Assembly (NCBI GenBank): GCA_045588325.1
Contig: JAZNEA010000093.1
Coordinates: 1-54,792 of the forward strand
From: Clostridia bacterium
GTDB taxonomy: Bacteria; Bacillota; Clostridia; RGIG7378
Reading direction: 5' to 3'
Length of the DNA: 54,792 bases
Numbering within the stretch: the first letter of the stretch is position 1; each line of letters opens with the position of its first letter. Of this stretch, positions 5,153-54,792 are shown piece after piece. The notes under the pieces are model-generated. The model was not told the origin of the DNA. It searched no databases and was given only the letters and a program-made list of their open reading frames with translations. The position numbers and the translations under genes were made by a program.

Positions 5153-6472
5153 ATGAGCTTTTCTAAGGATTTTTTGTGGGGAGCAGCCACTGCTTCTGCT
5201 CAGATTGAGGGTGCCTGGGATCAGGACGGCAAGGGGCCTAGTATTTGGGACGTGCTGTACCCCGGACATACGCGCAACAACGAGCATCCTCACGAGGCCT
5301 GCGACCATTACCACCACTACAAAGAGGACGTGGCCTTGATGAAGGAAATGGGCCTCAAGGCGTACCGCTTTTCCATTAGTTGGCCCAGGGTCATTCCAGA
5401 GGGAACAGGCCCGGTAAACCAAGAGGGCTTGCAGTTTTACAAAAATTTGACCGCCGAACTTAAGGCTGCCGGAATAGAACCAATTGTAACTCTGTATCAC
5501 TGGGACTTGCCCTACGCACTGCACATCAAGGGTGGATGGAACAATCCTGAGATAGTGGACTGGTTCGCCGAATATACGAGGGTTGTCGTGGAGGCCCTGT
5601 CAGAAGATGTTAAATACTGGCTCACGTTTAACGAGCCTCAGTGCTTTATCGGCATCAGCTATGTGGGAGGGGAGCATGCGCCCTTCTATAACGACCCACT
5701 GGCATTGCCAGGACTCACAAGGAATGTGCTGTTTGCCCACGCCAGAGCAGTAAAGACAATTCGCCAATATGCTAAGCAACCGCCCTTGGTGGGATATGCA
5801 CCTACAGGAACCATATTTGAACCTGCAGAGGAGACCCCGGAGGGCATCGAAAAGGCCAGGCAGGCAACATTTGCCACAGGTCATAGCTTTACGGTAAGTT
5901 GGTGGTGTGACCCTGTTTTGTTGGGTAAGAATGCGCCTCCCTGCCAGGGATGTCCTGTGTTCACGGAAGAGGAGTTGGCAGAACTTAATCAGCCCCTGGA
6001 TTTCCTGGGCTACAATGTGTATCAGGCCGCAGGAATGCATGTGGATGGCAGCAACTATTCATCCAATGCCTGGGTAGGATCTCCTTTGACTACAATGGAC
6101 TGGGGAGTGACACCCAACGCCCTGTACTGGACGGTCAGGTTTCTCAGCGAAAGGTATGGAAAGTCCATTCTCATTACGGAGAACGGCATGGCAAATACAG
6201 ACTGGATCATGTTGGATGGAGCAGTTCACGATCCACAGAGAATAGACTTTATGCATAGATACCTGCTGACGGCCAAGAGAGCTGTGGAGGAGGGCTATCC
6301 TATGATGGGCTATTTGTACTGGTCATTTATGGATAACTACGAATGGGCCTGGGGATATGGACGCAGATTCGGCCTGGTTTATGTGGATTACCCCACTCAG
6401 AGACGCGTGGTCAAAGACTCCGGACACTGGTATAAGAAGGTAATCGAGAGCAATGGAGAAATGCTAAGTTAA
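5153..6472 (+). CDS. Beta-glucosidase, glycoside hydrolase family 1
   Basis: FLWGAATASAQIEG, TLYHWDLP, catalytic TFNEP and ITENG, WSFMDNYEWAWG; ATG 5153 behind GAGGAGG. Confidence 0.95.
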   Translation: MSFSKDFLWGAATASAQIEGAWDQDGKGPSIWDVLYPGHTRNNEHPHEACDHYHHYKEDVALMKEMGLKAYRFSISWPRVIPEGTGPVNQEGLQFYKNLTAELKAAGIEPIVTLYHWDLPYALHIKGGWNNPEIVDWFAEYTRVVVEALSEDVKYWLTFNEPQCFIGISYVGGEHAPFYNDPLALPGLTRNVLFAHARAVKTIRQYAKQPPLVGYAPTGTIFEPAEETPEGIEKARQATFATGHSFTVSWWCDPVLLGKNAPPCQGCPVFTEEELAELNQPLDFLGYNVYQAAGMHVDGSNYSSNAWVGSPLTTMDWGVTPNALYWTVRFLSERYGKSILITENGMANTDWIMLDGAVHDPQRIDFMHRYLLTAKRAVEEGYPMMGYLYWSFMDNYEWAWGYGRRFGLVYVDYPTQRRVVKDSGHWYKKVIESNGEMLS

Positions 6473-6645
6473 AAGTGAAAAGTGAAGAGTGAAAAGTTCA
6501 GTTAAGAGATAAGAGTGAAGAGTGAAAAGTTCAGTTAAGAGATAAGAGTGAAGAGTGAATAAAGTTGGTTAGTGAAAAGTTGGAAGTTGACTAATTCTAC
6601 ACTTGCCAACTTTGTTATCTCTTAACTCTTAGTTATTAGCTGAAC
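6471..6645. repeat. Heptamer-built inverted-repeat element, copy 1
   Basis: Left arm of AAGAGTG/AAAAGTG/AAGAGAT/AAAAGTT units, core AAAGTTGGTTAG...GCCAACTTT, right arm TTATCTCTTAACTCTTAGTT. Confidence 0.85.
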
Positions 6646-6669
6646 CTAACATGAGAATATTAAGAAAAT

Positions 6670-6698
6670 AAAAAAGCACTCGTTTTCACAAGTGCTTT
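6670..6698 (-). terminator. Intrinsic terminator after tRNA-Ala
   Basis: AAAAGCACT...AGTGCTTTT stem with a U tract on the minus strand. Confidence 0.75.
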
Positions 6699-6774
6699 TG
6701 GTGGAGATTAGGGGAATCGAACCCCTTACCTCCTGCGTGCAAAGCAGGCGCTCTACCAGGTGAGCTAAACCCCC
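6699..6774 (-). tRNA. tRNA-Ala(TGC)
   Basis: Full cloverleaf GGGGGTTTAGCTCA...CCTGC-TTTGCAC-GCAGG...TTCGATT...CTCCACCA; G3:U70 pair; CCA encoded. Confidence 0.95.
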
Positions 6775-15281: not shown

Positions 15282-16166
15282 ATGGAAAACAATCCAAATA
15301 TGTTAGTCAGAGGAACTGCTGCCAATGGGCACATTATGTTCTTTTCGTTAGATTCTACACAATTGGTGGAGGAGGCCCGTGTTAAGCATAATCTGAGCCC
15401 CTTGTCCACGGTGGTGCTAGGTCGACTCCTTACGGCGGCAGCATTGGCCGGGCAGGAACTCAAGGGTGAAAAGGATGTCTTGACCATGATACTCAAGGGA
15501 AGTGGTCCTGCAGGAACGGTATTGGTCACCGCTGATTCAAAGTCAAGGGTTAAAGGATATATAGACAATATTAATCTGGAGACCAGGAGTCGAGAGGATG
15601 GGCATTTTGATGTGGCATGGGCGGTTGGTCCAGAGGAGGGATATTTGACCGTAATTCGCGATCTGGGTCTCAAGGAACCCTATTTAGGGAGGACAGAGTT
15701 AATCTCAGGAGAAATCGCAGAGGATGTTGCGTATTATTACGCAGTTTCTCAGCAGACACCGTCGGTAGTTTCCTTGGGCGTGCTTATTGATACAGATAGC
15801 AGCGTAAAGCATGCAGGTGGGTTTATGCTGCAGTTGCTCCCTAATACGCCGGATGAGGTGATAGATGCACTGGAGCCCCTGGTAGGTGGGTTCCCACCTG
15901 TAACATATCTGCTGGAGCAGGGATTTACAGCGGCAGAACTTATGGATTTGTTGCTGAACAGGCTGGGATTCGAAATAACAACACGGACCACAGCGGAGTA
16001 TTACTGTGATTGTTCCAGGGAACGCATGGAGCGCAAGCTTATGACCATAGGCAAGGCAGACCTCCAGAGCATAGTGGATGACGATCAGGAAGGTGTGGAA
16101 CTGGTATGCAACTTCTGCAATACAGCGTACAATTTTACTAAGGAAGATGTAAAAAAACTAATCTAG
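15282..16166 (+). CDS. hslO: Hsp33 redox-regulated chaperone HslO
   Basis: LGRLLTAA, SGEIAED, AGGFMLQLLP, CDCS...CNFC zinc centre. Confidence 0.95.
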   Translation: MENNPNMLVRGTAANGHIMFFSLDSTQLVEEARVKHNLSPLSTVVLGRLLTAAALAGQELKGEKDVLTMILKGSGPAGTVLVTADSKSRVKGYIDNINLETRSREDGHFDVAWAVGPEEGYLTVIRDLGLKEPYLGRTELISGEIAEDVAYYYAVSQQTPSVVSLGVLIDTDSSVKHAGGFMLQLLPNTPDEVIDALEPLVGGFPPVTYLLEQGFTAAELMDLLLNRLGFEITTRTTAEYYCDCSRERMERKLMTIGKADLQSIVDDDQEGVELVCNFCNTAYNFTKEDVKKLI

Positions 16167-16188
16167 CTCCCGCTAGATTAGTTTTTTT
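16151..16188 (+). terminator. Intrinsic terminator after hslO
   Basis: 17-bp perfect stem AAAAAAACTAATCTAGC / GCTAGATTAGTTTTTTT. Confidence 0.85.
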
Positions 16189-16335
16189 GTTAAGAGATAA
16201 AAGTTAAGAGATAAAAGTGAAAAGTTAAGAAAGTTGGTTAGATATGAGTTGGGAGTTGACCAACTTTTCGTTTGCCAACTTTATTCACTCTTCACTCTTA
16301 GTTCTTAACTGAGATTTTCACTTTTCGCTTTTAAC
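16189..16335. repeat. Heptamer-built inverted-repeat element, copy 2
   Basis: GTTAAGAGATAAAAGTTAAGAGATAAAAGTG...AAAGTTGGTTAG...GCCAACTTT...CACTCTTCACTCTTAGTTCTTAACT. Confidence 0.85.
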
Positions 16336-16383
16336 TAAAACAACGGGGGACAAAAAGTTGTCAAAAAAATCTTTATAAACCCC

Positions 16384-16412
16384 TTGACAGTATGTAGGCG
16401 AATGTGTAAAAT
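16384..16412 (+). promoter_or_regulatory. Strong sigma-70 promoter of the tRNA operon
   Basis: TTGACA-17 bp-TAAAAT with an upstream A-tract region. Confidence 0.8.
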
Positions 16413-16463
16413 AACCCTTGCTTTCGCACGGAACAGATTGTTTCTGATGAGGCGAGGGATAGT

Positions 16464-29255: not shown

Positions 29256-29788
29256 ATGAGCCAAAAATTAAAGTTAGTTCTCAGGATTGTAGCTAATGCT
29301 ATTGTACTGGTTGTATTGGTACTGGCGTTTCTGCTGCATGGTGTCAAGCTGTTTGGCCTGACACCTTACTCTGTGTTATCCCCATCGATGCAGTCGGTGT
29401 ATCCTACAGGCTCCCTGATATACGTCAAGGATGTGGAGCCAGCCACATTAGAGGTGCAGGATGTTATTACATTCAGGATGGGGAATGGCAGCATAGCCAC
29501 CCATCGTATTGTGGAGATAGTCCCCGACGAGGGGGATGGAGAGGTTGTACGGTTCCGCACTAAGGGCGATGAGAACGAGACTGCAGACGGGCCACTGGTG
29601 GACTATAGCAGCGTCGTTGGCAAACCTGTGTTCTGCATACCGAAATTAGGTTTTCTAGCCACCTATATGACCACCACTTCGGGAAATACGCGACAATCAC
29701 GGTGGCAATGGGAATTGTCCTGTTGGAACTGCTGATAAACATGCTTATAGGCGACAAGGATAAACACAAAAAGGAGGAAGTGACATGA
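29256..29788 (+). CDS. sipW: Signal peptidase I, SipW (ER-type) family, with an apparent -1 frameshift near 29681-29687
   Basis: VLSPSM (Ser), ITF, THRI (His), TKGDEN; the -1 frame restores GKYATITVAMGIVLLELLINML TM and a TGA overlapping the next ATG. Confidence 0.8.
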
Positions 29789-31638
29789 GAGGTTCAAGGG
29801 CTTTGATCCTGGCAATATGCACAGTGCTGCTGATTACGGTATCCGTTTTGGGCACGATTGCGTGGCTGACCAGCCAAGATGCAGTTGTAAATACATTCTC
29901 TGTTGGCAAGGTCAAAATTACGCTGGATGAGGCTGCAGTCAATGCGGACGGCTCATTGGCCGCAGGAGGTCGAGTCAAGAGCAATGCTTATCACCTGCTA
30001 CCAGGTGGTACATATATCAAGGACCCCACACTGACTGTCAAGGCAGACAGCGAGACAGCATATGTTCGCTTGTTGCTCACCATAAATTGCCTGGAGGAGC
30101 TGGACGCCATATTTGCTCCTGAAGGTGTTGATTTGCAGACTATTTTTAATGGCTACGATGAAAGTGCGTGGATTTATGTGGAGACCGCCAGAGACACAAC
30201 CAACAACACTGTTACTTACGAGTTCCGCTACAAGGAGCTTGTGACAAAGGCCAGCGACGATACAGTATTGGAGCCCCTGTTCCAGTCTATAACAATCCCT
30301 GGAACGTTTACCTCGGAGGACATGGCGTCCACAGAGGGCATGGCAGCCAACCTGCTGATAGGCAAGACGGTGGAACATCCCCTTGGAGAGGCATACGTAA
30401 TCCCTGCAAACATCTCCTTTGACTTTAAGGTGGATCTGGGATCATACTACGCAAATGCCACCATCGAGACGTCAGGTGGAACAGTGGAGGCCGACGAGAA
30501 CGGATCGATTACCGTTTCGGTAAAGCCAGGACAAGATTTTACAGTAGAGAACATTGACGCAGGCACCAAGGTTACGGTTACCGAGCTCAGGACATATGGC
30601 CCAGGGTTCTCCGCCAAGGATGGCGTGCTTGTCAGAGAGGGAGTAGTAGGGCAAGATGGCAGTCTGAGACTTGATTTTGTAAACATCTACGCTCCTGCAG
30701 CAGTGCAGTTTACCAATGCAACAGTCGTTGGCGTCAAGGAGCTGGAGGGCAGACCCTGGCAAGAGGGAGACACATTCTCATTTGCCCTTGAACAGGAGAC
30801 CAGTGAGGGAGTGTGGACGCAGCTGGGCACAAGGTCAGTTGCATACGACGCACAGGACCCGGAGTTTAATAAGTTTGATTTTAGCGATATTGTTCGCGAG
30901 ATTACATTTGACCAGATAGGTACATACAGCTTTCGCATGACGGAGGAGGTTGGCGACCTGGAGGATGTGGACTACGATAGGAGTGTCAACACATTTGCCG
31001 TAGAGGTTACGGATGCGGACATGGATGGCCAGTTAGAAATCGGTAAGGTTACAGCGGCTCAAAATGCAGAGGCCACAGAGGTTAATGGTGAGCACGTGAT
31101 TTCTGTAGTGTTTAACAACACATTTATCCCAGCGACTCCGACACCAGAGGACATAACGGTTAATGTAGAGGTAAACAAGACAGTCGAAAATATGGGAGCC
31201 TCTGCCATTGGGCCAGAGGGATTCCAGTTCGTGCTGGAGGATGTGGCAACAGGCGAAAAGCTAATGCTCCAGACGAGCAGTGATGGTAAGGTAATCTTTG
31301 ACCTAGATTTCACTGCAGGAGATGTGGGCCGTACATACACGTACAAGTTGTTCGAGGTCAACACAGGAGTAAAGGGAGTTACCTACGACACCACCGTCCA
31401 CGAGATAGCCATATCCATTTCCCTTGGAGAGGACGGCAATTTGGATGCAATGCTTAAACTAAACGGCAGCGCAACAGACAGGCTGGTGGCGGCCTTCGAA
31501 AATACTTATGAGGTAGAAAATCCCGTGGAGCCTCCTACTGGAGACGTGGAGAATGGCGGATTCTGGTTTATCATGATGATGATCAGCGGTGCGGCATGCG
31601 TAGTCCTGTTCGCGCTGGACAAGAAATACGCCAGGTAG
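29785..31638 (+). CDS. SipW-type signal peptide protein with pilin-like/Spy0128-like Ig domains and a C-terminal sorting signal
   Basis: GTIAWLTSQDAVVNTFSVG, KDPTLTV, repeated K.LEGR...FSF / ITF...GTY / YTYKLFE...GVTYD domains; EPPTGD + TM + KKYAR. Confidence 0.8.
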   Translation: MRGSRALILAICTVLLITVSVLGTIAWLTSQDAVVNTFSVGKVKITLDEAAVNADGSLAAGGRVKSNAYHLLPGGTYIKDPTLTVKADSETAYVRLLLTINCLEELDAIFAPEGVDLQTIFNGYDESAWIYVETARDTTNNTVTYEFRYKELVTKASDDTVLEPLFQSITIPGTFTSEDMASTEGMAANLLIGKTVEHPLGEAYVIPANISFDFKVDLGSYYANATIETSGGTVEADENGSITVSVKPGQDFTVENIDAGTKVTVTELRTYGPGFSAKDGVLVREGVVGQDGSLRLDFVNIYAPAAVQFTNATVVGVKELEGRPWQEGDTFSFALEQETSEGVWTQLGTRSVAYDAQDPEFNKFDFSDIVREITFDQIGTYSFRMTEEVGDLEDVDYDRSVNTFAVEVTDADMDGQLEIGKVTAAQNAEATEVNGEHVISVVFNNTFIPATPTPEDITVNVEVNKTVENMGASAIGPEGFQFVLEDVATGEKLMLQTSSDGKVIFDLDFTAGDVGRTYTYKLFEVNTGVKGVTYDTTVHEIAISISLGEDGNLDAMLKLNGSATDRLVAAFENTYEVENPVEPPTGDVENGGFWFIMMMISGAACVVLFALDKKYAR

Positions 31639-31682
31639 ACTCTGGTGCCCCAGATTGCGGAACATAGAATAAGGACAAAAAT

Positions 31683-31711
31683 ATGGCATAGGCGGAACCC
31701 GTCTATGCCAT
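31683..31711. terminator. Bidirectional terminator at the convergence point
   Basis: ATGGCATAGGCGG-AAC-CCGTCTATGCCAT. Confidence 0.75.
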
Positions 31712-32188
31712 TTACTCTTTTGTAAATATAGCTTTTAACCTATCAAAAAATCGCTTTTTTGTTGGAAATGTTCCTGTAAGGGGTTCGTTTAAGACCCAGG
31801 GTAGCACAATGTTGTAAACCGTCACAGCGAAATAATCTGTTTTTTGATCGTTTGGAATACAGGAATCGTCGATTACAATGCTCAAGAACAAATTGCCGTC
31901 ATTTAAGTCAATTTCATGTTTATCCAGTTCGAGTATTTTTCCGCAAACAGTATATGATGCAAAAAGATACTGTGTCTCTTTGTCTGACTCGACGGAGCTC
32001 AGTTGGTCAGGGCGATCAATAGATACACCAAGTTCGAGCAAGAATTCGTCTAATAAAGGGAATCTATCCTTTACCTGTGCATAATAATTGCGGCAGGACG
32101 GGCAATCGCAAAGGGAGTGGGAGGCATAATATGCTTTTGTCTGTTCAACATCAATATCCATTTTGCAATTTTGCTTTTGAATAATCAT
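31712..32188 (-). CDS. Hypothetical protein with a CxCxxC motif
   Basis: 158-aa ORF with RBS-like GAAAGGCGGTG; LCDCPSCRNYY and a distal YTVCG. Confidence 0.7.
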   Translation of the reverse strand: MIIQKQNCKMDIDVEQTKAYYASHSLCDCPSCRNYYAQVKDRFPLLDEFLLELGVSIDRPDQLSSVESDKETQYLFASYTVCGKILELDKHEIDLNDGNLFLSIVIDDSCIPNDQKTDYFAVTVYNIVLPWVLNEPLTGTFPTKKRFFDRLKAIFTKE

Positions 32189-32285
32189 CCCATCACCGCC
32201 TTTCTTAGATTAAAATATGGCACCCATGGGGTTTCGCCTTAAGTAAACTAAAACCTGTACACAACGAAGCTCGATGGCCACAAAA

Positions 32286-32852
32286 TTAATCCTTTGTTCG
32301 CTGATCTCCACCGCAAACTGTACATTTTTCGTTTTCGAATTGGTGAGCAGGCGCGCCAGTGATTATGTGTGTTCGCAGGACCTCCTGTCCACACCCCGCA
32401 CAATAAATGACCTCATCATGTGATCCAGCCTCTGTGCAGGTGGGGGAGACCTCGTTCTCCAGGACTCGACTTAACTCCGGATGGGTATGCACCGCGTTTT
32501 TGCTGTTCACTATGCCAATTATAGCACAGGCAGACAACAAACCAATGAGACAAATTGCGGGTATCAGATACCAATGGTTCTTTTTTCGAACCAAAAGCTT
32601 TGTTTCATCCACCTCAGCTTCAACAGCAGGAGCATTTACATCCGGCTCATCTTCATAATCGTCATTTAGCAGATAATCTGCAGTCACGTTAAACAGCTTG
32701 CTGATTTGCAATATATTCTGCGCATCTGGCAACGCTGTTCCGTTTTCCCAACGGCTGACTGCCTGGCGGGACACATTAAGATTTCCAGCGAAATCCTCTT
32801 GGGACCAGCCCCTTTCTTTTCTGAGCATGATTATTTTATCTAACAATTTCAT
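32286..32852 (-). CDS. XRE-family HTH protein with a TM helix and a C-terminal Cys/His-rich motif
   Basis: LRKERGWSQEDFAGNLNVSRQAVSRWENG...PD; TM; PTCTEAG...YCAGCG...HQFENEKCTVCG; ATG 32852 behind AAGGAGGG. Confidence 0.85.
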   Translation of the reverse strand: MKLLDKIIMLRKERGWSQEDFAGNLNVSRQAVSRWENGTALPDAQNILQISKLFNVTADYLLNDDYEDEPDVNAPAVEAEVDETKLLVRKKNHWYLIPAICLIGLLSACAIIGIVNSKNAVHTHPELSRVLENEVSPTCTEAGSHDEVIYCAGCGQEVLRTHIITGAPAHQFENEKCTVCGGDQRTKD

Positions 32853-33013
32853 AATAAGCCCTCCTTGATTTGATGGTTTCACTATAGCTAAATAAGCCTC
32901 AGAATGCCACCGCATCAACTTTACAATTTTGCAACAAGACTTTACAAATGGCCCTTTGGCGAAAGGATACAAAAATGTTCATTGAAAAAATCCGTCACAG
33001 CGAAATCAAAAAC

Positions 33014-33047
33014 AAAAAAGATCCGCTCTCATTTGAGAACGGATCTT
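33014..33047 (-). terminator. Terminator after tRNA-Cys
   Basis: AAGATCCG...CGGATCTT stem with a U tract on the minus strand. Confidence 0.75.
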
Positions 33048-33052
33048 CGTGT

Positions 33053-33126
<74 letters not shown>

Positions 33127-33140
33127 GAACTTGCTTTGCT

Positions 33141-33169
33141 ATTGTAGCAAAGTACTCCCTCGGTGTCAA
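33141..33169 (-). promoter_or_regulatory. Sigma-70 promoter of tRNA-Cys
   Basis: TTGACA-17 bp-TACAAT on the minus strand. Confidence 0.8.
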
Positions 33170-33304
33170 CGCAGAAATTTAGGACTTTTCGGCGGCCCCG
33201 CAAATTTTACGGCTATTACCACGCCGAGCCACATGCAGCGCAGGGGGAGATACAGCCTATATTCATAATCTGTGCTATAATACAGAAAAAAGCGGAGCAA
33301 AATT

Positions 33305-34909
33305 ATGTACATACCAGAATGCACAATAACATACCTGCACAAAGATGGTCGTCAGTATAGTGGCAACCTTAAGTCCAGCGGACTGAGAGCTCAGGTCCAC
33401 GACCGCAACGGCGAGATCAGCGTGTCCATTAATCCTATGGAGCAAGTTCGCCTGGTGTCTTTTACCATGTCATTCCACTGGATTTGCGAAACTGACGAGC
33501 GCTTTTTTATGAACGGTTTTCGCTCCGATTCACCCTGCATGGAGACGAGCAGGGACAACAAACTATCGCGCTTACCTGCTATCCTTAAGCGCCACCTGAG
33601 AGTTAGTACAGCCGCCAGATTGTTTGGCGCCTACGACATTAACAACGGATCCCCCATGGGTTTCTCATACTGCTATTTCCGCACATCCCGCAACAATTAC
33701 AGACTTGTGGCATCACTGTCAGACCGCAATGGATACACCGTATTCCAATATGACGGCCCCGACAGCACCATCTATATATCCAAGGACGTGGAAGGCATCT
33801 GCCTGAATCCAGGCGAATACAAGCTGATGAACGTCAAGATATACGACGGCACTGAGGATGCCGTATTTGCACAGTGGTTTGACGACCTAGGTTTGCCTAA
33901 GATGGATGTTGCACCAATGGGAGGCTACAGCACCATGGCCATGGGAAATCACGTGGATGGTCTGGATATTAACGAGGCCCTGTCGGGATTGGCACCCCTG
34001 CAGCAACAGGATGGAATGTTCCTGGTGGCAGAGGGATGGAACCAGACCAAGGGGGACTGGATGCCAGCACCATATAGATTTCCGGAGGGTATGGCGCAGG
34101 TTGCTAAAAATATTCATTCCGCGGGGCTTAAGGCAGCCCTGTGGATAACGCCCTTTTCTGTAGATAGGCGCAGTCAACTGGCGACAGACCATAGGGATTG
34201 GATCAAGAGAGACAGGAACAACAAAATAGTTAATAGCCCCATGGATGCAAATCTGGTGGCGCTGGATGTGTCCCGAGCTGACGTGAGAGACTATATTCGC
34301 AGGCTGATTGACACTGTAATCAACAAGTGGGGGTTTGATGTGCTTGTGGCAGGAGACCTCTACATGGCCGGGATTGTGCCCGAGGAGGGACACAGCCGAG
34401 CAGAGGCCATGTACAATGCCATTGATACCCTTAGAGAATTGGCGGGAGATACACCTATTCTGGCTGAGGATGTGCCTCTGATGCCCGCCTTTGGCAAGGT
34501 GGAGTATTGCCATATCTCCACAGGTACAACAGTTACGTCTAAGACTGCATTTCGCTCTGTCAGGGCATTGGTGGATTACTTTACTCCGGACAGGTCCGTT
34601 CTTGGGGCCCTGTTCAGGAGGCAACTCAGTGGCAGAGCTTGGGTTAACACTCCTAAGGAGTACTCGCTTCTGAGTCACGGAGGCAGGCCGGGACGTGATT
34701 CTCTGAGGGCCAATGCAATCGTCAGCGGCATGATAGGCATGCCCCAGCTGATCATAGACAATGCGACATTGTACGACGAAAAGCAACAGGAACTTGTACG
34801 GCAAAACATGCAGGGCACAGAGCGAAAAATTCGCCGGGTTTATGATGTAAAAAGGCAGGTAGTTGTGGAATATTCAGAGGGCGAAAACCTTTGTACAGTA
34901 AGGCTTTAA
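33305..34909 (+). CDS. GH36 alpha-galactosidase-like protein with degenerate catalytic motifs
   Basis: GDW...RFPEGM, LKAALWITPF, ALDVS, WGFD, VPLMPAFGKV, FRRQLSGR scaffold; extended -10 TGCTATAAT upstream. Confidence 0.75.
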   Translation: MYIPECTITYLHKDGRQYSGNLKSSGLRAQVHDRNGEISVSINPMEQVRLVSFTMSFHWICETDERFFMNGFRSDSPCMETSRDNKLSRLPAILKRHLRVSTAARLFGAYDINNGSPMGFSYCYFRTSRNNYRLVASLSDRNGYTVFQYDGPDSTIYISKDVEGICLNPGEYKLMNVKIYDGTEDAVFAQWFDDLGLPKMDVAPMGGYSTMAMGNHVDGLDINEALSGLAPLQQQDGMFLVAEGWNQTKGDWMPAPYRFPEGMAQVAKNIHSAGLKAALWITPFSVDRRSQLATDHRDWIKRDRNNKIVNSPMDANLVALDVSRADVRDYIRRLIDTVINKWGFDVLVAGDLYMAGIVPEEGHSRAEAMYNAIDTLRELAGDTPILAEDVPLMPAFGKVEYCHISTGTTVTSKTAFRSVRALVDYFTPDRSVLGALFRRQLSGRAWVNTPKEYSLLSHGGRPGRDSLRANAIVSGMIGMPQLIIDNATLYDEKQQELVRQNMQGTERKIRRVYDVKRQVVVEYSEGENLCTVRL

Positions 34910-35034
34910 GGATATTGCGCGAACATTTTGGAACGGCTTTTCGTCCAAGGATTCAGACGAATAAAGCAATGCAAGGTCTGTTTTTGAGCCATCGCGTATG
35001 GTAGAATACAGATATTGTTCATGTAGGGAGTAAT

Positions 35035-36432
35035 ATGGCACGCAAGAAGAACAAAAAGGTTATATTGGAGCAGCAGGTGGTTGAGGCCTCCTTTGATGCT
35101 ATGTTGGAGGATATGGTTCCAGTTGCTGCGGATGACATTATAATCGGAGACGCCACTGAGCTGGAGGTTCAGGAGGCAGTTCAGCCTGCGCCTGTAGAGG
35201 GTATGTCACACAGCTCCAATGCGGATGCCCCAGGCGAGGCCACAGCAGCATCGCTCTATCAGATGGAGTTTGAGAACAATAGCCTTGAGGATCCGGAGCT
35301 CACAGTTTCTGCCTTTGACCGTGGAGGCAGGAGCGGACGTGGCCGCACATATGACCCCAGGCTCAAGCCTCAGGGTATGCCCAGACATAAGGAGAAGAGA
35401 TGGCGCGATTTGCCCCTGGCAGGTAAGGCCTATGAGATAGTTTATTATCTGTGTCTTGTGGTTTTCTGCATCTCCATCGGCGTTTTGGGAGCCAGAGGAT
35501 ATGTATACATGACACATAAACAGCAGGTAGATAGTATCAAGGATTTGTATGTCCGCGATCCCATAATCACATCTACTCCTGGGCCCATTTACACAGATGT
35601 ACCTACCCTTGCCCCCAGCAATACACCGCCAGCCGGCGATTATCCAATGGACAACACACAGGATGTTACACAGGACGTTACACAGGATATTACTGGAGAT
35701 GGCACCACAGATGTTACAGAGGACATCACTCAGCCACAGGGGCCGTTTATCCCCACACCTCCACCAGTTTCTACGCCAGTGCCTCAGGTCAGGCCGTCCT
35801 TTTCCAGTCTCCTTAGCATTAACAGAGACGTGGTTGGATGGATCCAGCTGACGGGCACGGTTATCAATTACCCTGTACTGCAGAGTCACGACGACAACAA
35901 CAAGAGCTTCTATATAGACCACGATATTTTCGGCAAGGGCACATACTATGGCTCCATTTTCATGGATTATTTTTGCTCCTCCGACAATCTGGGCAGGAAC
36001 ACCATTATCTCTGGCCACCACATGCAGGACGGCGAGATGTTCAGACAGATTGCAAACTATACCAGCACATATATGTGGAAACAGAATCCCATCATATACT
36101 TTGACACCCTGTATGAGAGCTATGAGTGGGAGGTGTTCGCATCCTTCTTGGTAGATGCAGATTCGGAGAAGATTCCCGTAACGTTCTCATCCGACAATGA
36201 GTTTATCGATTATTGCAATAGTTGCCTTAAGAGGTCTACGGTTAAGTTGGCACAGAACGTGCAGTTTGGCCCCAATGACAAGATTTTGACACTGGTAACC
36301 TGTAGCTATAATGGCAAGTACGCAGACGAGAGGACATTTACCATATTCAGACTGGTAGAGCGTAGCGGAGAGCTGGACACAGACGGAACGTGGAAACCTA
36401 CTACACCCAGACTCAGTGGCTCCTGGAAGTGA
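35035..36432 (+). CDS. srtB: Class B sortase with a long acidic N-terminal extension and a Pro/Thr linker
   Basis: VVGWIQL, NYPVLQ, GSIFMD, NTIISGHHM, LTLVTCSY, distal R. Confidence 0.88.
   Translation: MARKKNKKVILEQQVVEASFDAMLEDMVPVAADDIIIGDATELEVQEAVQPAPVEGMSHSSNADAPGEATAASLYQMEFENNSLEDPELTVSAFDRGGRSGRGRTYDPRLKPQGMPRHKEKRWRDLPLAGKAYEIVYYLCLVVFCISIGVLGARGYVYMTHKQQVDSIKDLYVRDPIITSTPGPIYTDVPTLAPSNTPPAGDYPMDNTQDVTQDVTQDITGDGTTDVTEDITQPQGPFIPTPPPVSTPVPQVRPSFSSLLSINRDVVGWIQLTGTVINYPVLQSHDDNNKSFYIDHDIFGKGTYYGSIFMDYFCSSDNLGRNTIISGHHMQDGEMFRQIANYTSTYMWKQNPIIYFDTLYESYEWEVFASFLVDADSEKIPVTFSSDNEFIDYCNSCLKRSTVKLAQNVQFGPNDKILTLVTCSYNGKYADERTFTIFRLVERSGELDTDGTWKPTTPRLSGSWK
35656..35691 (+). repeat. 12-bp coding tandem repeat (TQDV/TQDV/TQDI)
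   Basis: ACACAGGATGTT ACACAGGACGTT ACACAGGATATT. Confidence 0.85.
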
Positions 36433-36433
36433 C

Positions 36434-37054
36434 ATGAACAATATTTATACCAATTATTTACAAACAGAGGATACAGAACTAATTCAAATTGCTCGCAGTG
36501 GGGACCGTGATGCCCTCAATGCCCTTATGGAGCGCTACAAAACCATGGTTAAGGCCAAGGCTCGCAGTTATTACATCGCAGGTGCAGACATGGAGGACAC
36601 TATCCAGGAGGGCATGATCGGACTATATCACGCTTATGCCAGTTACGATTGTGGCAAGGACGCCAGCTTTAAGACCTTTGCCAACCTGTGTGTGGAGAGG
36701 GCAATGGTTAGCGCCGTTCGCAAGGCCACTGCCAACAGCCAGATCCCTGTGGAAAAATTTGTCTCCCTGTACGACAACGATCAGGAAGGAATAGGCGACG
36801 CGCTGCAGGCGGCTATTGGAGAGGGCGTAGAGTGTGATCCCGAGGAGATTTACCTTCGCAAGAGCCACACCCAGATGTTGCACAAATATGCAGAGGAGCA
36901 CCTATCCGCTATGGAACTGCAGGTTCTGAGGCAGTATTTGCAGGGCAACTCTCAGAGCGAAATTGCAGAGATATTGGGCATCAGCCGCAAGTCGGTGGAC
37001 AATGCTCTGTCCAGGATCAAAGGGAAGCTGGTAAAGACAGATGGCAAAGAGTAA
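36434..37054 (+). CDS. sigH: SigH-like RNA polymerase sigma factor
   Basis: VKAKARSYYIAGADMEDTIQEGMIGL, SFKTFANLCV, SEIAEILGISRKSVDNALSRIKGKL. Confidence 0.85.
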   Translation: MNNIYTNYLQTEDTELIQIARSGDRDALNALMERYKTMVKAKARSYYIAGADMEDTIQEGMIGLYHAYASYDCGKDASFKTFANLCVERAMVSAVRKATANSQIPVEKFVSLYDNDQEGIGDALQAAIGEGVECDPEEIYLRKSHTQMLHKYAEEHLSAMELQVLRQYLQGNSQSEIAEILGISRKSVDNALSRIKGKLVKTDGKE

Positions 37055-47083: not shown

Positions 47084-48267
47084 AAACAGATACTAAGCTG
47101 ATGGAACTGATTCAGCGACTGATTGATAAGGAGTTGCTGACAGGACTGACAATCACTCCCAGCAAGGGGATCAGCACTGGCATAACTAAGGTAACAGCCC
47201 GCAAGGTTATTATCAAAGATAGAGCCAATTGGCAGTTTGAGGTGCGGCTGACTAAGCAGGTTCGCCACATTAACGTTTCAAATGTGGGAGGGGTATTCCT
47301 GGATCAGCTGGAGACTCTGTTGGATCAGTGTAGTTTCTCTACACTTAACCTAAAGACCACTGAGGGTATGTACCAGGTGGTAGCCAATCCCGACAGAGAG
47401 ACTGTCAAAATCATTCACCACAGCAGCAAGGTCGACTCCACGGTTCGGACCGAGGCGACTTCTCATAACAGGACCAAAAACTACATCATTCCTGAGGGAC
47501 AGCCCCTGAATTTTCTGCAGGAATTGGGAGTTATGGATGCCAGTGGCCGAGTGCTGCAGCCCATGCGAAGGAAATTTGTACAGATAAATAGATTCCTGGA
47601 GATAGTTGACGATATCTATTATTCACTGCCAAACAGAGATGTTTTGAGGATCGTGGATTTTGGTTGCGGCAAGTCCTATTTGACCTTTGCAATGTATTAC
47701 TATTTTACTGTGATTAAGGAGAGAACTGTGGATATGGTGGGCCTGGACCTTAAGGAACAGGTAATAGAGGATTGCAACAAACTGGCCGCTAACTGCGGGT
47801 TCCCCAAGCTGAGGTTTGAGACAGGTAGCATAGAGGAATACCGCCAGGGATATGCAGACACAGACATGGTGGTTACATTGCACGCCTGTGATACGGCCAC
47901 AGATGCTGCTTTAGAAAAGGCGGTTCTGGGGGAGGTGCCGGTAATATTGTCTGTGCCCTGTTGTCAGCACGAGTTAAATGGACAGATTCAGAACGAAACA
48001 TTGGCACCATTGCTGAAGTACGGCCTGCTAAAGGAGAGGTTTTCCGCGCTGCTGACAGACGCCCTGCGAGCCAGGATTCTGGAGCTTTGCGGGTACAAGG
48101 TGGATATTATCGAATTTGTAGATATGGAGCATACGCCCAAAAATTTGATGATCAAGGCAGTATATACCGGAGAACCACCATCAGCCCTTAAGAGGAGAGA
48201 ATATGACACCCTGGTTGGCGAAATGCAGGTACATCCATGGTTGGAGAGATTGGCGAAGCGAGGCTGA
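47080..48267 (+). CDS. SAM-dependent methyltransferase (Methyltransf_32-like)
   Basis: KFVQINRFLE, VDFGCGKSYLTF, LHACDTATD, VPCCQHE, HTPKN. Confidence 0.88.
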   Translation: MKTDTKLMELIQRLIDKELLTGLTITPSKGISTGITKVTARKVIIKDRANWQFEVRLTKQVRHINVSNVGGVFLDQLETLLDQCSFSTLNLKTTEGMYQVVANPDRETVKIIHHSSKVDSTVRTEATSHNRTKNYIIPEGQPLNFLQELGVMDASGRVLQPMRRKFVQINRFLEIVDDIYYSLPNRDVLRIVDFGCGKSYLTFAMYYYFTVIKERTVDMVGLDLKEQVIEDCNKLAANCGFPKLRFETGSIEEYRQGYADTDMVVTLHACDTATDAALEKAVLGEVPVILSVPCCQHELNGQIQNETLAPLLKYGLLKERFSALLTDALRARILELCGYKVDIIEFVDMEHTPKNLMIKAVYTGEPPSALKRREYDTLVGEMQVHPWLERLAKRG

Positions 48268-48280
48268 GCAGAGCTTCGCT

Positions 48281-48388
48281 AGTGAAGAGATAAGAGTTAA
48301 GAAAGTTGGTCAGTTTATAGTTGGCCAACTTTTTTATCTCTTCACTATTAGTTGTTAGTTGAACAAAGCTCTTAGTTATTAACTGAAC
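48281..48388. repeat. Heptamer-built inverted-repeat element, copy 3
   Basis: AGTGAAGAGATAA...TTATCTCTTCACT perfect 13-bp inverted repeat around AAAGTTGGTCAG-TTTATAG-TTGGCCAACTTT. Confidence 0.85.
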
Positions 48389-48551
48389 CGTTGCTCTTCG
48401 ACAGAAAACAGTCTTTTTCGATGCGCAATTTAGGATGGCGAAAATTGTCGGTATTTTGGGTGCGATTCCCTGAAAGCATTGAGATACAAGGGTTCCATGG
48501 GACTTGCAGAAGTGTCGAACAAAAAAAGACAGTTCAGAGTTGCTGTAAGAT

Positions 48552-48657
48552 TAGTTAAGAGATAAGAGATAAGAAGTAACAAAGTGGGCCAGTTTATAGT
48601 TGGCTAACTCATAACTAACCCACTTTCTTCACTCTTCACTCTTAGTTCTTAGCTGAA
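48552..48657. repeat. Heptamer-built inverted-repeat element, copy 4
   Basis: AGTTAAGAGATAAGAGATAAG...AAAGTGGGCCAG-TTTATAG-TTGGCTAACT...CACTCTTCACTCTTAGTTCTTAGCTGAA. Confidence 0.82.
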
Positions 48658-48674
48658 TTATTTTGGTGCGAAAA

Positions 48675-49355
48675 ATGAACCTTGAATTTATATGGAAGGG
48701 GATATTCCCCACAGTTTGTGTCATGTGTGGAGCGGTAACAGAGGACGCATCCACGCATATATGTGATGATTGCTACAGATCGCTGCCATTGAGAAAGGGC
48801 TTTTTTCTGTGTTGCCCCGCAAAAAGCGATGGGTTTCGGTATTGCAACGGCGTTTATTGCCCGCTTTACTACAGCGGCCAGGTTCCCGCCCTTGTTGGCG
48901 AGCTAAAGTTTGCCGGCCATCGGGAGGCGGCCAAAGCGCCTGCCCAGCTACTGGCCCAGATGCTGCGCCGCAGCAGCATGACCCTTCCGGGCCGCAATGT
49001 GTGCCTGGTGCCCATTCCCCTGCACCGGGACCGCCAGAGACGCAGGGGTTACAATCAGGCACAAGTCATTGCCGCAGAGGTGTCGGCCCGCACAGGCATA
49101 CCGCTGGACGAGGGCCTGTTGCTACGAGCTAACAACACAGACCCACAGCATCTGCGGGATCGACTACAGCGGCTGGCGATGGACGCCGGCTTCGTAGCCT
49201 CTCCCAGGGCCCGTGGCAAAGTTATAATACTAGTGGATGACGTAATAACCACGGGCGTCACCATGGAGGCTGCTGCCTTGGCGTTACGCCAGCAGGGAGC
49301 AACTGGAGTGTATTACGCTGCGGCCGCCGGGAACCTGCCGCTCTTACCTGAGTGA
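48675..49355 (+). CDS. comF: ComF family protein (zinc ribbon + PRTase-like domain)
   Basis: CVMC..CDDC, PIPLH, RGYNQA, LVDDVITTGVT; start could be 48663. Confidence 0.88.
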   Translation: MNLEFIWKGIFPTVCVMCGAVTEDASTHICDDCYRSLPLRKGFFLCCPAKSDGFRYCNGVYCPLYYSGQVPALVGELKFAGHREAAKAPAQLLAQMLRRSSMTLPGRNVCLVPIPLHRDRQRRRGYNQAQVIAAEVSARTGIPLDEGLLLRANNTDPQHLRDRLQRLAMDAGFVASPRARGKVIILVDDVITTGVTMEAAALALRQQGATGVYYAAAAGNLPLLPE

Positions 49356-49498
49356 GCAGGCCTTTACAAAAGCTCTGTTAGGCCGTAAACTTGATTTATT
49401 TTCTGTATATTTACATATTAGGGAATGCAAAGTTCTTTGATTTGTGGCACAATATACGATATATATGCAGGAGTCCCTGCTTATTAATTGGAGGACAT

Positions 49499-50443
49499 AT
49501 GATAGAGATATCACATCTGATTAAACAATATGGCGATATACACGCCGTAAATGATATCAGCTTCACCGTTGAGGATGGAGAGGTTTTGGGTTTCTTGGGA
49601 CCCAACGGAGCAGGCAAATCTACGACCATGAATATTCTCACTGGATTTATCCCATATACCAGTGGAGCCATTCGTGTTAATGGTCACGAGATTATGGAGG
49701 AGCCAGAGGCCGTTAAGAAGATGATCGGTTATTTGCCGGAGATTCCGCCCCTCTATATGGATATGACAGTTATAGAGTATCTTAAGTTTGCCGCAGAGCT
49801 TAAGAAGATCCCAAAGGCAGAGAGGCCTGGTCAGGTTGCTATGGCTATGGATATGCTTAAGATTGCCGACCACTCACACAGATTGATTCGCAACCTGTCC
49901 AAGGGATATAAGCAGCGTGTTGGTTTTGCTCAGGCTCTGTTGGGCAATCCAGAGGTTTTGGTCCTGGACGAGCCCACCGTAGGACTTGACCCCAACCAGA
50001 TTTTGGAGATCCGCAAGATTATCAAGAGATTAGGGCAAAAGCACACTATTATCCTCAGCACACACATCATGCAGGAGGTTAGTGCAGTATGTGACCGCGT
50101 TGTTATTATCAACAAAGGCCGCATCGTAGCAATTGATACGCCCGACAATCTTTCGAGGCATCTTACTGGTGCAGGAGCTTTGTCTGTTACTGTTTCTGGC
50201 CCAGAAAAGGAGATTATTAACTGCATTCGTGCAGTTGCGGGAGTTAAGAGCGTCAGGGTTGGCGCAGACAGAGGCGAAAACGGCAAGGTTTATGATGTTA
50301 CATCAGACTCTCAGGTAGATGTTCGCAAGTCTGTTTCTCTTGCATTGGGCAAGGCTGGATATCCCGTAACAGAGATGAGGGCTACAGACAAGTCTTTGGA
50401 GGAGATCTTCCATGAGCTCACCACCGAAGGAGGCAAGAAATAA
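49499..50443 (+). CDS. ABC transporter ATP-binding protein (GldA-like)
   Basis: GPNGAGKS, LSKGYKQRVG, LDEPTVGLDP, STH; ATG behind GGAGG. Confidence 0.92.
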   Translation: MIEISHLIKQYGDIHAVNDISFTVEDGEVLGFLGPNGAGKSTTMNILTGFIPYTSGAIRVNGHEIMEEPEAVKKMIGYLPEIPPLYMDMTVIEYLKFAAELKKIPKAERPGQVAMAMDMLKIADHSHRLIRNLSKGYKQRVGFAQALLGNPEVLVLDEPTVGLDPNQILEIRKIIKRLGQKHTIILSTHIMQEVSAVCDRVVIINKGRIVAIDTPDNLSRHLTGAGALSVTVSGPEKEIINCIRAVAGVKSVRVGADRGENGKVYDVTSDSQVDVRKSVSLALGKAGYPVTEMRATDKSLEEIFHELTTEGGKK

Positions 50444-51147
50444 TGAAGGCAGTTTTTAAACGCGAGTTCCGTGCATATTTTCAGTCACCCATTGCCTACG
50501 TGGCAATCGGAACCTTTTTCTTTGTGGCAGCGCTGCTGTACGTCATCGGCAACCTGCTTATTGGAGACGGCGATTTTGTTAACATTCTCAGCAATTTGAC
50601 TTTTGCTCTCATGGTTATTACTCCCGTTTTGACCATGCGTATTATGTCTGATGACCGCAAGAACGGCACAGAGGTTTTGTTGGTCACTTCGCCCACCACA
50701 ACAGCAGAGGTGGTTGTGGGCAAATACCTGGCAGCTCTGTGCGTGTTCCTTATCATGGTAGCAACTTCTGTGATTTTCCCACTTATTACGACCATTTATG
50801 GTAGCCCTTCCATGGCAGCTATAGTTAGCTGCTACATTGGCTTCATACTGTTGGGAGCCAGCTATTTGGCTATAGGCGTATTTGCATCCTCCCTTACAGA
50901 GAATCAGATCGTTTCTGCCTTGATTACACTGGTGTTTATTATCTTTATGTTCGTAATAGATGCCTTGGTGGCGGTTACGGGATGGTTTGGAACAGTGTTG
51001 TCATGGTTATCTCTGTTGTCACGCTTTGACCCCTTCTCTCTCAGCGTGCTCAGTCTGACATCCATTTTCTACTATTTGACATTTATTGCAGTGGTCCTGT
51101 TTGTTACAGTAGTCAGCGTGGATCGCAGGCGTTGGAAGAGCAACTAA
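50443..51147 (+). CDS. ABC-2 permease (GldF-like)
   Basis: REFRAYFQSPIAY, PVLTMR, VVVGKYLA. Confidence 0.9.
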   Translation: MKAVFKREFRAYFQSPIAYVAIGTFFFVAALLYVIGNLLIGDGDFVNILSNLTFALMVITPVLTMRIMSDDRKNGTEVLLVTSPTTTAEVVVGKYLAALCVFLIMVATSVIFPLITTIYGSPSMAAIVSCYIGFILLGASYLAIGVFASSLTENQIVSALITLVFIIFMFVIDALVAVTGWFGTVLSWLSLLSRFDPFSLSVLSLTSIFYYLTFIAVVLFVTVVSVDRRRWKSN

Positions 51148-51160
51148 GGAGGGTGTAGAG

Positions 51161-54045: not shown

Positions 54046-54268
54046 GTGAAAGGTGAAGAGTTGTTACTTTGGACCGACCCAAAGTAACCAAAAGTCGCCG
54101 GCTACTCCCGCAAGCGCCGAAGGCACGGCTTAGGGCGCAGCCCTAAGAACCCTAGGTTGTTTAGTTAACAACTAAGAGATAAGAGTTAAGAAAGTTGGTT
54201 AGCTGATAGCTGGCCAACTTTTTTGTTTTGTCTCATAAGCTTTTTCGCTTTTCACTGTTCATTTTCGC
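54043..54268. repeat. Heptamer-built element, copy 5, interrupted by a second multi-hairpin element (~54063-54160)
   Basis: AAGTGAAAGGTGAAGAGTT | insert | AAGAGATAAGAGTTAAGAAAGTTGGTTAG-CTGATAG-CTGGCCAACTTT...CGCTTTTCACT. Confidence 0.78.
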
Positions 54269-54277
54269 AACATAGGC

Positions 54278-54306
54278 TTGACCTGGGTTCTATTTTGTCG
54301 TAATCT
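54278..54306 (+). promoter_or_regulatory. Possible sigma-70 promoter
   Basis: TTGACC-17 bp-TAATCT. Confidence 0.45.
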
Positions 54307-54373
54307 CCTTTTAATGTTTTAGTTACAAAATGTAAAAAATCAGGGTATCAAAAAATTAATTAGGGGGAAAACG

Positions 54374-54787
54374 ATGAAAAAGGTATTGTCTTTGATTTTG
54401 GTGTTGGCAATGCTGATTACAGTGATTCCTGTAATCTCGCCAACCATTCGAGTGGAGGCAGCACAGACATTTTCGGCAGCAAAAGTGACTGTGTCCAACG
54501 CGGGTCAGACCAGATTTCAGTTTAAGGTTAATGGAGTCAATGTTAAAAGTGGCGACACAATAGATATGATTGTAAACCTTAGTGACATTCAGGGAACGAC
54601 TACGAAAGGGGGCACAGATGCAACTAGTGCATCCGTTGCAACCATAACTGTAAGAGATAACGTATCAAACACCAAGTATGTAGATGGTGAGTCCTTTAGC
54701 TCGTTCTCTACATCACTTGGAGATGGGTGGTACAAGGTTTCCATTCCTGCCACATGTTCAAGTACACAGCTTAAAGTCGGATCGTAG
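54374..54787 (+). CDS. Secreted beta-rich protein, possibly the truncated start of a larger surface protein
   Basis: Signal peptide MKKVLSLILVLAMLITVIP...VEA; RBS GGGGG; S/T/V-rich; stop 5 bp from the window end. Confidence 0.6.
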   Translation: MKKVLSLILVLAMLITVIPVISPTIRVEAAQTFSAAKVTVSNAGQTRFQFKVNGVNVKSGDTIDMIVNLSDIQGTTTKGGTDATSASVATITVRDNVSNTKYVDGESFSSFSTSLGDGWYKVSIPATCSSTQLKVGS

Positions 54788-54792
54788 CCATG

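Follow-up and report, generated by a model that had tools for sequence, protein, structure and literature searches.

What kind of element is built from seven-nucleotide units, recurs five times within 55 kb of a bacterial chromosome and carries no gene of its own? This question is raised by contig JAZNEA010000093.1 (assembly GCA_045588325.1) of a Clostridia bacterium of the lineage RGIG7378, of which 54,792 nucleotides (nt), hereafter called the window, were analyzed. A preliminary description of this DNA had reported a family of dispersed inverted-repeat elements with heptamer-built arms, and had read them either as a lineage-specific, non-autonomous mobile element or as RNA hairpins in 3' untranslated regions (UTRs). 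The reading that we favor, tentatively and with a probability of roughly 0.4, is that these elements are a Clostridial inverted-repeat form of a widespread and unexplained class of intergenic heptamer repeats. They would be arranged around terminator-like hairpins, would turn over without a dedicated enzyme, and would serve as an extended terminator or 3'-end hairpin wherever they are transcribed.

The five copies are present where they had been described, with refined limits (Table 1), and are far beyond chance. The core pattern AAAGTKGG-N5-35-CCMACTTT has five exact matches in the window, all on the + strand, and none in 100 dinucleotide-preserving shuffles. Paired adjacent heptamers (AARAGTGAARAGT, with at most one mismatch) are found 11 times against an expectation of 0.27, only within the five copies, and parsed unit tracts are likewise found 11 times, against 0.54 expected from shuffling. 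Each copy has the same layout, namely a purine-rich arm of 7-nt units (GTGAAGA, GTGAAAA, GTTAAGA and GATAAGA), a short central stem (AAAGTTGG…CCAACTTT) and a pyrimidine-rich arm made of the complementary units. A period of 7 is detected in all five copies by TRF, and in a repeat search of the window the copies fall into families of direct repeats (D1-D5, 21-111 nt) and pairs of inverted ones (I1-I6), the largest of which reach 77 nt with 84% complementarity. Whichever strand is folded, every copy yields a single hairpin that is long and imperfect (z = -4.4 to -8.4 relative to shuffles), and Watson-Crick complementarity between the arms is about 75%, to which G.T adds 11%. The single orientation of the copies tells little as far as the arms are concerned, since on either strand an inverted repeat is read with its purine arm first.

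Two subfamilies can be recognized. Subfamily A (copies 1, 2 and 4) is alignable over about 115 nt, from AGTTAAGAGATAAGAG to CTCTTAGTTCTTARCTGA, and its ends TTCAGTTAAGAGATAAGAG and CTCTTAGTTCTTAGCTGAA are inverted complements, i.e., terminal inverted repeats. Subfamily B (copies 3 and 5, located 5.8 kb apart) has a common 51-nt left arm and core with 92% identity. The core of copy 4, described earlier as less exact, carries a double compensatory change in which AAAGTGGG/CCCACTTT replaces AAAGTTGG/CCAACTTT. Across the five copies, lengths range from 105 to 223 nt, pairwise identities range from 62 to 92%, and the internal architecture is variable. The motif TAACTGA / TCAGTTA is found at the ends of the elements, only once per arm end. 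A hidden Markov model (HMM) of the copies detected no further copy in the window, where the remaining intergenic regions contain ordinary terminators and promoters.

The placement of the copies relative to genes is equally consistent with the earlier account. All five are intergenic, and four begin at or after a stop codon or terminator: copies 1 and 5 at a stop codon, copy 3 behind a hairpin with a stop codon in its loop, and copy 2 behind the terminator of the Hsp33 gene. Copy 1 begins within the last codons of the gene for a GH1 beta-glucosidase, where the first AGTTAA of the repeat gives the stop codon TAA (6470-6472); the protein ends in ...NGEMLS in the window versus ...NGENI in relatives. 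Copy 5 lies directly after the TAA (54043-54045) of a DUF4340 gene, and the last residues of this gene are unlike those of all relatives. In the case of copy 3, the stop codon of the upstream methyltransferase gene (48265-48267) is located in the loop of a small hairpin of the module type that forms TAGTGA-hairpin arrays in relatives. Each arm unit carries TGA or TAA, once per 7 nt, so that a run of three units puts a stop in every reading frame; the right arms terminate in TTAGTTNTTARCTGA, which also has TAG, TAA and TGA. As noted previously, two copies are beside tRNA loci, copy 1 next to tRNA-Ala and copy 2 upstream of tRNA-Asp.

Some copies also have the shape of an intrinsic terminator. 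A run of six T follows the central stem in copies 3 (by eye) and 5, and the copy 5 core is the top terminator-like site in a scan of the 6.8 kb from 48000 to 54792. Judged from sequence, the inner hairpin of copy 2 appears to have such features weakly, and copies 1 and 4 appear to be without them. Where an element is transcribed, its arms would lengthen the terminator hairpin, resulting in an extended terminator or a hairpin that protects the 3' end. Such an element would need no transposase of its own; we infer that it could grow, shrink and spread via slipped-strand mispairing, tandem block duplication, and recombination or gene conversion between copies. It would occupy the stretch that separates a gene's stop codon from the promoter that follows, where added DNA would do little harm.

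Table 1 Repeat copies and adjoining features, in window coordinates
Feature	Positions	Strand	Remarks
Copy 1 (subfamily A)	6467-6646	+	Left arm is a 33-nt block (AGTTAAGAGATAAGAGTGAAGAGTGAAAAGTTC) x 2.8, then a long core and one right arm with the end CTCTTAGTTATTAGCTGAAC
tRNA-Ala	6699-6774	-	Adjoins copy 1
Hsp33 intrinsic terminator	16158-16189 (about)	+	Canonical, CTAATCTAGC...GCTAGATTAG then seven T; read directly from the sequence, absent from the list of the consensus terminator scan
Copy 2 (subfamily A)	16189-16336	+	81% identity to copy 1 across 111 nt
Copy 2 inner hairpin	16246-16266		Terminator-like, listed in the terminator scan
tRNA-Asp	16464		Downstream of copy 2
Small hairpin	48253-48285	+	GCGAAGC...GCTTCGC then TAGTGA, upstream of copy 3
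Copy 3 (subfamily B)	48280-48389	+	Perfect 14-bp outer stem; core stem then TTTTTT; motif TTAGTTNTTARYTGAAC present twice at the right end
Spacer between copies 3 and 4	48390-48551		Unique 162 nt outside the repeat; local yardstick of intergenic divergence
Copy 4 (subfamily A-like)	48553-48657	+	Compensated core AAAGTGGG/CCCACTTT
Copy 5 (composite)	54046-54268	+	Starts with two heptamers, GTGAAAG GTGAAGA
Copy 5 three-hairpin module	~54062-54150		GC-rich, 90 nt, after the two initial heptamers
Copy 5 small hairpin	54157-54171		After the GC-rich module, before the subfamily-B element
Copy 5 subfamily-B core	54187-54225		18 pairs, then TTTTTTGTTTTG

Comparison with relatives reveals how quickly these elements change. 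Syntenic contigs of relatives (L002-L024) were obtained via close homologues of the window Hsp33, DUF4340 and GH1 proteins. The family extends beyond the window: copies 3 and 4 are present in the closest contig, L015, which is 96.3% identical to the window across 5.4 kb of coding DNA, and the more distant L022 has two related elements at other, unrelated loci. Copy 4 is identical at 105 of 106 positions in L015, which adds an extra 43-nt block to the right arm. The adjacent spacer, by comparison, is 89.5% identical, differing at 17 of 162 positions versus 1 of 106 for copy 4 (Fisher p = 0.002). Copy 3 is a mosaic in this comparison, its right arm being 92% identical and its left arm and core only 72%, with a 17-nt central indel; the left half of the L015 copy is related to the L022 elements, and that of the window copy to window copy 5. 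Compensatory changes are also found between the two versions of copy 3. Together with the conservation of copy 4, these stem-preserving changes suggest, at the level of sequence, that some constraint acts on the elements. At the fifth site, L015 lacks copy 5 and has two heptamers and a 30-nt terminator-like hairpin followed by T6 instead, such that the whole segment is replaced, including the last codons of the gene. The two L022 elements have one ~60-nt arm module in common; one of them carries four tandem 64-nt right arms and the other begins at a stop codon. Tandem block duplication is thus seen with blocks of 33 nt (x 2.8, copy 1), 64 nt (x 4, L022) and 43 nt (L015). The presence/absence and structural polymorphism anticipated for these elements is therefore real, and comprises, within a very short evolutionary distance, an entire copy gained or lost, duplicated blocks, and half of an element replaced by sequence from another copy.

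Part of this pattern could be produced by a transposable element similar to miniature inverted-repeat transposable elements (MITEs) or REPINs, with TTCAGTTAAGAGATAAGAG...CTCTTAGTTCTTAGCTGAA as its terminal inverted repeats and its enzyme encoded elsewhere in the genome or in a phage. The dispersed copies have common ends and a common core, copy 5 is present in the window and not in the 96%-identical L015, and L022 has its arm module twice at unrelated loci. The arm vocabulary is also found on many phage contigs, possible carriers between hosts, and if the + strand is the structured one, it is also the lagging-strand template (by its positive GC skew), as used by IS200/IS605 and RAYT-type enzymes. 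However, inspection of the flanks revealed no target-site duplication or clean insertion edge at any copy, and the difference at site 5 is a segment replacement rather than a clean insertion. The lengths (105-223 nt) and internal architecture are variable, the identities of 62-92% are not at the level of a recent burst, and there is no conserved GTAG-type cleavage motif. The copies contain no open reading frame (ORF), as originally stated, and Pfam scans of the 55-kb window revealed no transposase, RAYT, reverse transcriptase, integrase or four-helix-bundle gene; no transposase, RAYT or integrase is listed among the genes called or scanned on the relatives' contigs. The larger, ORF-enclosing copies that the preliminary description had suggested looking for were not found in the window, the relatives or 127 viral loci, and the only three inverted array pairs spaced 200-1000 nt apart in viral loci enclose no recognizable enzyme. 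Sites empty of the element do exist in relatives, but without target duplications, and the changes that are seen are block duplications and half-element swaps. Transposase-driven mobility is thus not supported by these comparisons, and we consider a transposable element unlikely.

The same sites in other relatives are occupied by a variety of sequences. Between Hsp33 and tRNA-Asp, L008 (73% Hsp33 identity) is empty, its stop codon overlapping the -35 box, and L007 (87%) has (GAAGTAA)n from 3 nt after the stop codon to the end of the contig. L002-L005 (91%, with Hsp33 identical among themselves) have small GC-hairpin arrays with TAGTGA/TAGTAG linkers, of which there are 3 in L005 and 10 each in L002, L003 and L004, and the L004 hairpin modules differ in sequence from those of L002/L003. 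At the GH1 site, other heptamers (CACTAAA, CACCCAA) and a terminator are found in L002, a terminator only in L022 and L024, and a different gene in L020. Arrays that start at a stop codon recur in this collection, including copies 1 and 5, site 5 of L015, L007 and the second L022 copy. Three of the four element sites (6473-6698, 16167-16463 and 54046-54373) are synteny breaks or gene-content differences when compared with L020, L022, L002 and L016-L019. In relatives, GH1 is followed by an inserted HMA-ATPase gene or pst/pho operon, the tRNA cluster by a different gene set, and DUF4340 by a 9-kb block or the pyr operon.

It could be argued from such variation that the elements are a functionless by-product, namely slippage-prone simple-sequence DNA and quasi-palindromes that arise in dispensable intergenic space, especially at rearrangement junctions, and persist because they are harmless. 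Sites that are empty (L008), terminator-only (L022, L024) or filled with quite different repeats fit this explanation, as do TAGTGA-hairpin arrays that vary in length and modules despite identical Hsp33, the (GAAGTAA)n of L007, and the location of three of the four sites at synteny breaks. An excess of heptamer simple sequence repeats (SSRs) has, moreover, been attributed to the polymerase footprint, according to work cited in PMC4692102. A by-product should, however, show neither the better conservation of copy 4 relative to its adjacent spacer (p = 0.002) nor stems kept intact by compensatory changes, and it leaves the consistent array starts at stop codons and a unit vocabulary common across phyla to be accounted for. 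In our estimation, this explanation is doubtful.

The GC-hairpin arrays of the relatives are a second, distinct class of modular hairpin repeat at positions of the heptamer elements. They have 4-6-bp stems separated by TAGTGA/TAGTAG directly after stop codons, and are found at L002 10892-11107, L003 5958-6173, L004 4225-4448 and L005 1681-1772, with further examples at L016 5715-5745 and 11372-11410 and at L018 3551-3640, and a trace at window positions 48253-48285. Their stems differ by compensatory changes, for example GCACC/GGTGC versus GCAAC/GTTGC. The three-hairpin module of copy 5 also has a counterpart, being ~90% identical over its first ~65 nt to L018 3643-3712 (also L019). The L018 module is at the orthologous site, where the flanking protein is only 80% identical to that of the window. 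One compensatory pair distinguishes the two (CGGC/GCCG versus CCGC/GCGG), there is no Rfam match, and this stretch may represent either a further mobile module or a structured RNA of small size. Beside a further tRNA, L005 has CTCTTCA CTCTTCA CTATTCC (2310-2400) within a larger inverted repeat (AAAATCCTCGTTCGTA...TACGAACGAGGATTTT) at which the contig ends; contig ends are frequent at these repeats.

How far the family extends depends on which part is used as the probe. The core, sought in GTDB representative genomes as AAGAAAGTTGGTYAG-N5-35-CCAACTTT, yielded one chance match, in Ruegeria, and in JGI metagenomes, sought as AAAGTTGGTYAG-N5-35-GCCAACTTTNTT, it yielded six matches, none with heptamer arms. 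Conservation lies in the arms, which made the core unsuitable as a probe for these scans. There is no match to a catalogued repeat: in Rfam 15, only tRNAs pass the gathering threshold, sub-threshold matches being generic miRNA-precursor hairpin models far below their cut-offs, and blastn of the elements and of two IMG/VR contigs against plasmids and GenBank phages found nothing. In contrast to the core, the arms are widespread. A probe of three arm units (AAGAGTGAARAGTGAARAGTG) detected at least 120 stretches with three or more AAGAGTG-type units in IMG/VR, counts that are not independent, as many of the contigs are related phages. The matching contigs have ~40-70% GC, mostly 40-60%, and in L107, at 63% GC, the GTGAAGA-type units are strongly off-composition. 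A common layout in IMG/VR consists of a purine arm (GTGAAGA/GTGAAAA/GTTAAGA), then a hairpin that is short and in many cases GC-rich, and then a pyrimidine arm (TCTTCAC/TCTTCGT/TCTTAAC); among the matches listed, about 20 non-redundant arm-hairpin-arm elements match the HMM of the window copies over most of its length. The claim that the family is lineage-specific can therefore be kept for the central core and must be given up for the arm heptamers and the layout.

The association with gene ends is also seen in phages. Again among the IMG/VR matches listed, 33 of 71 AAGAGTG-type arrays between co-directional ORFs start within 10 nt of the upstream stop codon, and the neighboring genes are phage structural and lysis genes. 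A general rule that the stop codons of an array are always on the coding strand was considered and rejected; it is true for AAGAGTG/AAAAGTG arrays (37 to 6) and reversed for AATAATG (0 to 11). Gene calls beside the arrays are biased, since the pyrimidine strand is without stop codons; spurious long ORFs are readily called on the stop-free strand of heptamer arrays. The suggested link between heptamer tracts and four-helix-bundle genes was not substantiated, as none of 150 representative ORFs adjoining IMG/VR heptamer arrays matched PF05635 (23S rRNA intervening sequence protein), the window has no such gene, and a literature search on the link returned nothing.

That a Clostridia chromosome shares its units and layout with many phage contigs whose composition is very different speaks against slippage alone and in favor of either horizontal spread or recognition of specific sequences. 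With regard to recognition, the elements may be binding platforms for a protein that recognizes single-stranded RNA or DNA in steps of 7 nt, the arms being site arrays with which the hairpin competes. Candidates would be a cold-shock-type OB-fold protein or a ring-shaped regulator, for example HutP. In proteins of the CspB type, each monomer binds one heptamer (discussed in PMC4679880; PMC7704496). Recognition would explain better than slippage why GTGAAGA, GTGAAAA and GTTAAGA recur across genomes of ~40-70% GC, would be the best explanation of a cross-phylum vocabulary, and is consistent with the non-random orientation of heptamer types relative to phage genes noted above. On the other hand, no candidate protein was identified, the units are degenerate and mixed within an arm, the arms would be largely base-paired in the hairpins of the window, and turnover between close relatives is fast, all of which makes a binding platform quite unlikely. 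Alternatively, the heptamer vocabulary might be a cross-phylum signal for gene ends and module boundaries that is read or written by an unknown, possibly phage-borne machinery, with the elements as active junctions of module exchange. The location of three of the four sites at synteny breaks would be accounted for in this way, yet it is the proposal to which we attach the least likelihood.

That heptamer repeats are over-represented was recognized around 1990 (STRR), and no explanation has been generally accepted. The STRR repeats were among the analogues named in the preliminary description, and the comparison is apt. Heptamer SSRs showed over-representation in bacterial intergenic DNA in a survey of 2007, an excess for which the polymerase footprint was held responsible (both as cited in PMC4692102). 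Arrays of TAACTGA and mixed heptamers in Beggiatoaceae, Cyanobacteria and Bacteroidetes abut start or stop codons, are absent in close relatives and have no known function (PMC4679880). Inverted heptamer pairs have been noted in Xanthomonas, as have GGGAATC/GGGGATT in Xanthomonas and Nostoc (PMC4692102), and arrays without a counterpart at the same sites in relatives are described in both papers (PMC4679880, PMC4692102). Like the STRR arrays of heterocystous cyanobacteria and the TAACTGA-type arrays, the window elements consist of 7-nt units with several variants mixed per array, are intergenic and often abut stop or start codons, contain units with stop codons, and are without a known function. 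In both, close relatives are found without an array at the same site, inverted pairs capable of forming a stem-loop occur (occasionally in the published class), and TAACTGA / TCAGTTA itself is found at the ends of the window elements.

The differences from this class are also clear. The window arrays are short and degenerate, and they are always inverted arms around a specific central hairpin, forming a recognizable dispersed element with subfamilies. Their units differ from the published CCCCAGT, TTGGTCA and CAACAGT, TAACTGA, and GGGAATC, and a literature search for the unit string found here returned no paper. Their length changes are not 7-nt steps (indels of 17 and 43 nt relative to L015; blocks of 33 and 64 nt), and the host is an uncultured Clostridia lineage, a group outside those papers. 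The window elements therefore fit the intergenic heptamer-repeat class, and what is new is the inverted-repeat architecture, the unit set and the host group.

Other known repeats are less similar. The REP/BIME/REPIN repeats of proteobacteria, which are mobilized by RAYT and thought to stabilize upstream mRNA and terminate transcription, are also short, dispersed, imperfect palindromes located in intergenic DNA just downstream of stop codons, in mosaic clusters with a variable number of modules. The five copies differ from them in lacking a GTAG-type 5' tetranucleotide at their ends (TAGTAG/TAGTGA linkers are found only in the relatives' separate GC-hairpin arrays), in their heptamer-built arms and much greater length (105-223 nt), in the lack of a RAYT gene in the 55-kb window and in having no population of high-identity copies. 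BOX elements of Streptococcus pneumoniae (boxA-boxB(n)-boxC) are similarly modular and intergenic, with variable internal unit numbers, no known transposase, and complementary end modules that fold into long RNA hairpins; they affect the expression of neighboring genes. Nevertheless, there is no sequence similarity, the BOX modules are 45-59 nt instead of 7 nt, and the phylogenetic group is another one. MITEs such as Correia/NEMIS, RUP and Nezha are small, ORF-less and dispersed, with terminal inverted complementarity, and are able to give adjacent genes stop codons or terminators. Unlike these, the window elements are without target-site duplication, uniform length, sharp boundaries or a related insertion sequence. 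Finally, intrinsic terminators with paired A-/U-tracts and the hairpin clusters found downstream of operons (PMC8355165) resemble the elements in having a hairpin right after the stop codon, in the T-run of copies 3 and 5, in the pairing of a purine-rich 5' flank with a pyrimidine-rich 3' flank that lengthens the stem, and in the several small hairpins that relatives have in the same places. The window arms, however, are periodic and extend over tens of nt, a T-run is missing from copies 1 and 4, and copy 2 is behind another terminator.

Several observations weigh against a terminator-associated heptamer repeat that turns over by slippage and recombination. Copy 2 is located between a strong Hsp33 terminator and the promoter of the tRNA-Asp/Phe/Gly cluster; with that terminator immediately upstream, it is probably little transcribed from that side, and no role as RNA has to be assumed for it. 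In copies 1 and 4, the core is not followed by a T-run. None of the indels and blocks (17, 43, 33 and 64 nt) has a length divisible by 7, and from simple slippage one would expect units that are arbitrary and particular to a lineage, not the same units across genomes of ~40-70% GC. The strand evidence is mixed as well. In the window, G.T wobbles favor the + strand 26 to 9, counts that are not independent, and four of five copies favor that strand, but copy 4 and several phage elements (e.g., L113 2679-2765) fold better antisense to the genes, and over all scorable elements the tally is 7 coding versus 4 antisense. Furthermore, the + strand of the window is both the coding strand and, by GC skew, the lagging-strand template, so that an RNA hairpin and a single-stranded DNA hairpin are inseparable here. 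The suggestion of a 3'-UTR RNA hairpin accordingly fits copies 1, 3 and 5 and is weakened by copy 2 and by the mixed strand asymmetry.

Whichever mechanism applies, heptamer arrays can be inverted arms around terminator-like hairpins, forming a defined dispersed element, and they start at a stop codon and can provide it. Should they turn out to act as terminators or to protect 3' ends, the elements ought to be listed when genomes of such lineages are annotated, and if a protein reads or writes the units, a new piece of biology would be at hand. The point most worth following up is the recurrence of the same heptamer units and layout, starting at stop codons, in very different genomes. The same IMG/VR loci (L033-L152; e.g., L090 2726-3494, L107, L145, L096) contain many other long intergenic heptamer arrays, with units such as AATGAAT, AACATTG, AGTGAAC, CAGAGAA, GGATTTT, CTTCTGA, GTCACTA and CTAACCA, each with its own orientation bias relative to genes.

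The window itself is ordinary chromosome of an uncultured Clostridia lineage. Among named relatives, its proteins are closest to 'Clostridia bacterium' entries from metagenome-assembled genomes, Hsp33 is ~50% identical to that of Mogibacterium, and no exact-protein matches for the window Hsp33 and FtsE are on record. Its genes include those for the GH1 beta-glucosidase, FtsEX, Hsp33, an oligopeptide transporter, RadA, a sortase-pilin cluster and an ABC exporter. The spacer between copies 3 and 4, upstream of a ComF-like gene, contains repeated TCGACA/TGTCGA motifs and may be an operator or leader region. On the - strand at 603-2629, a PP2C-type phosphatase gene adjoins that of a 406-aa protein whose C-terminal domain is a TIR domain; the two may form a defence or signalling pair. 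In the region 29785-37054 there is a gene for a surface protein with isopeptide (FctA/Spy0128-like) domains, and genes for a sortase-domain protein and an ECF-type sigma factor are found a few kb downstream, with a melibiase-like gene and tRNA-Cys in between.

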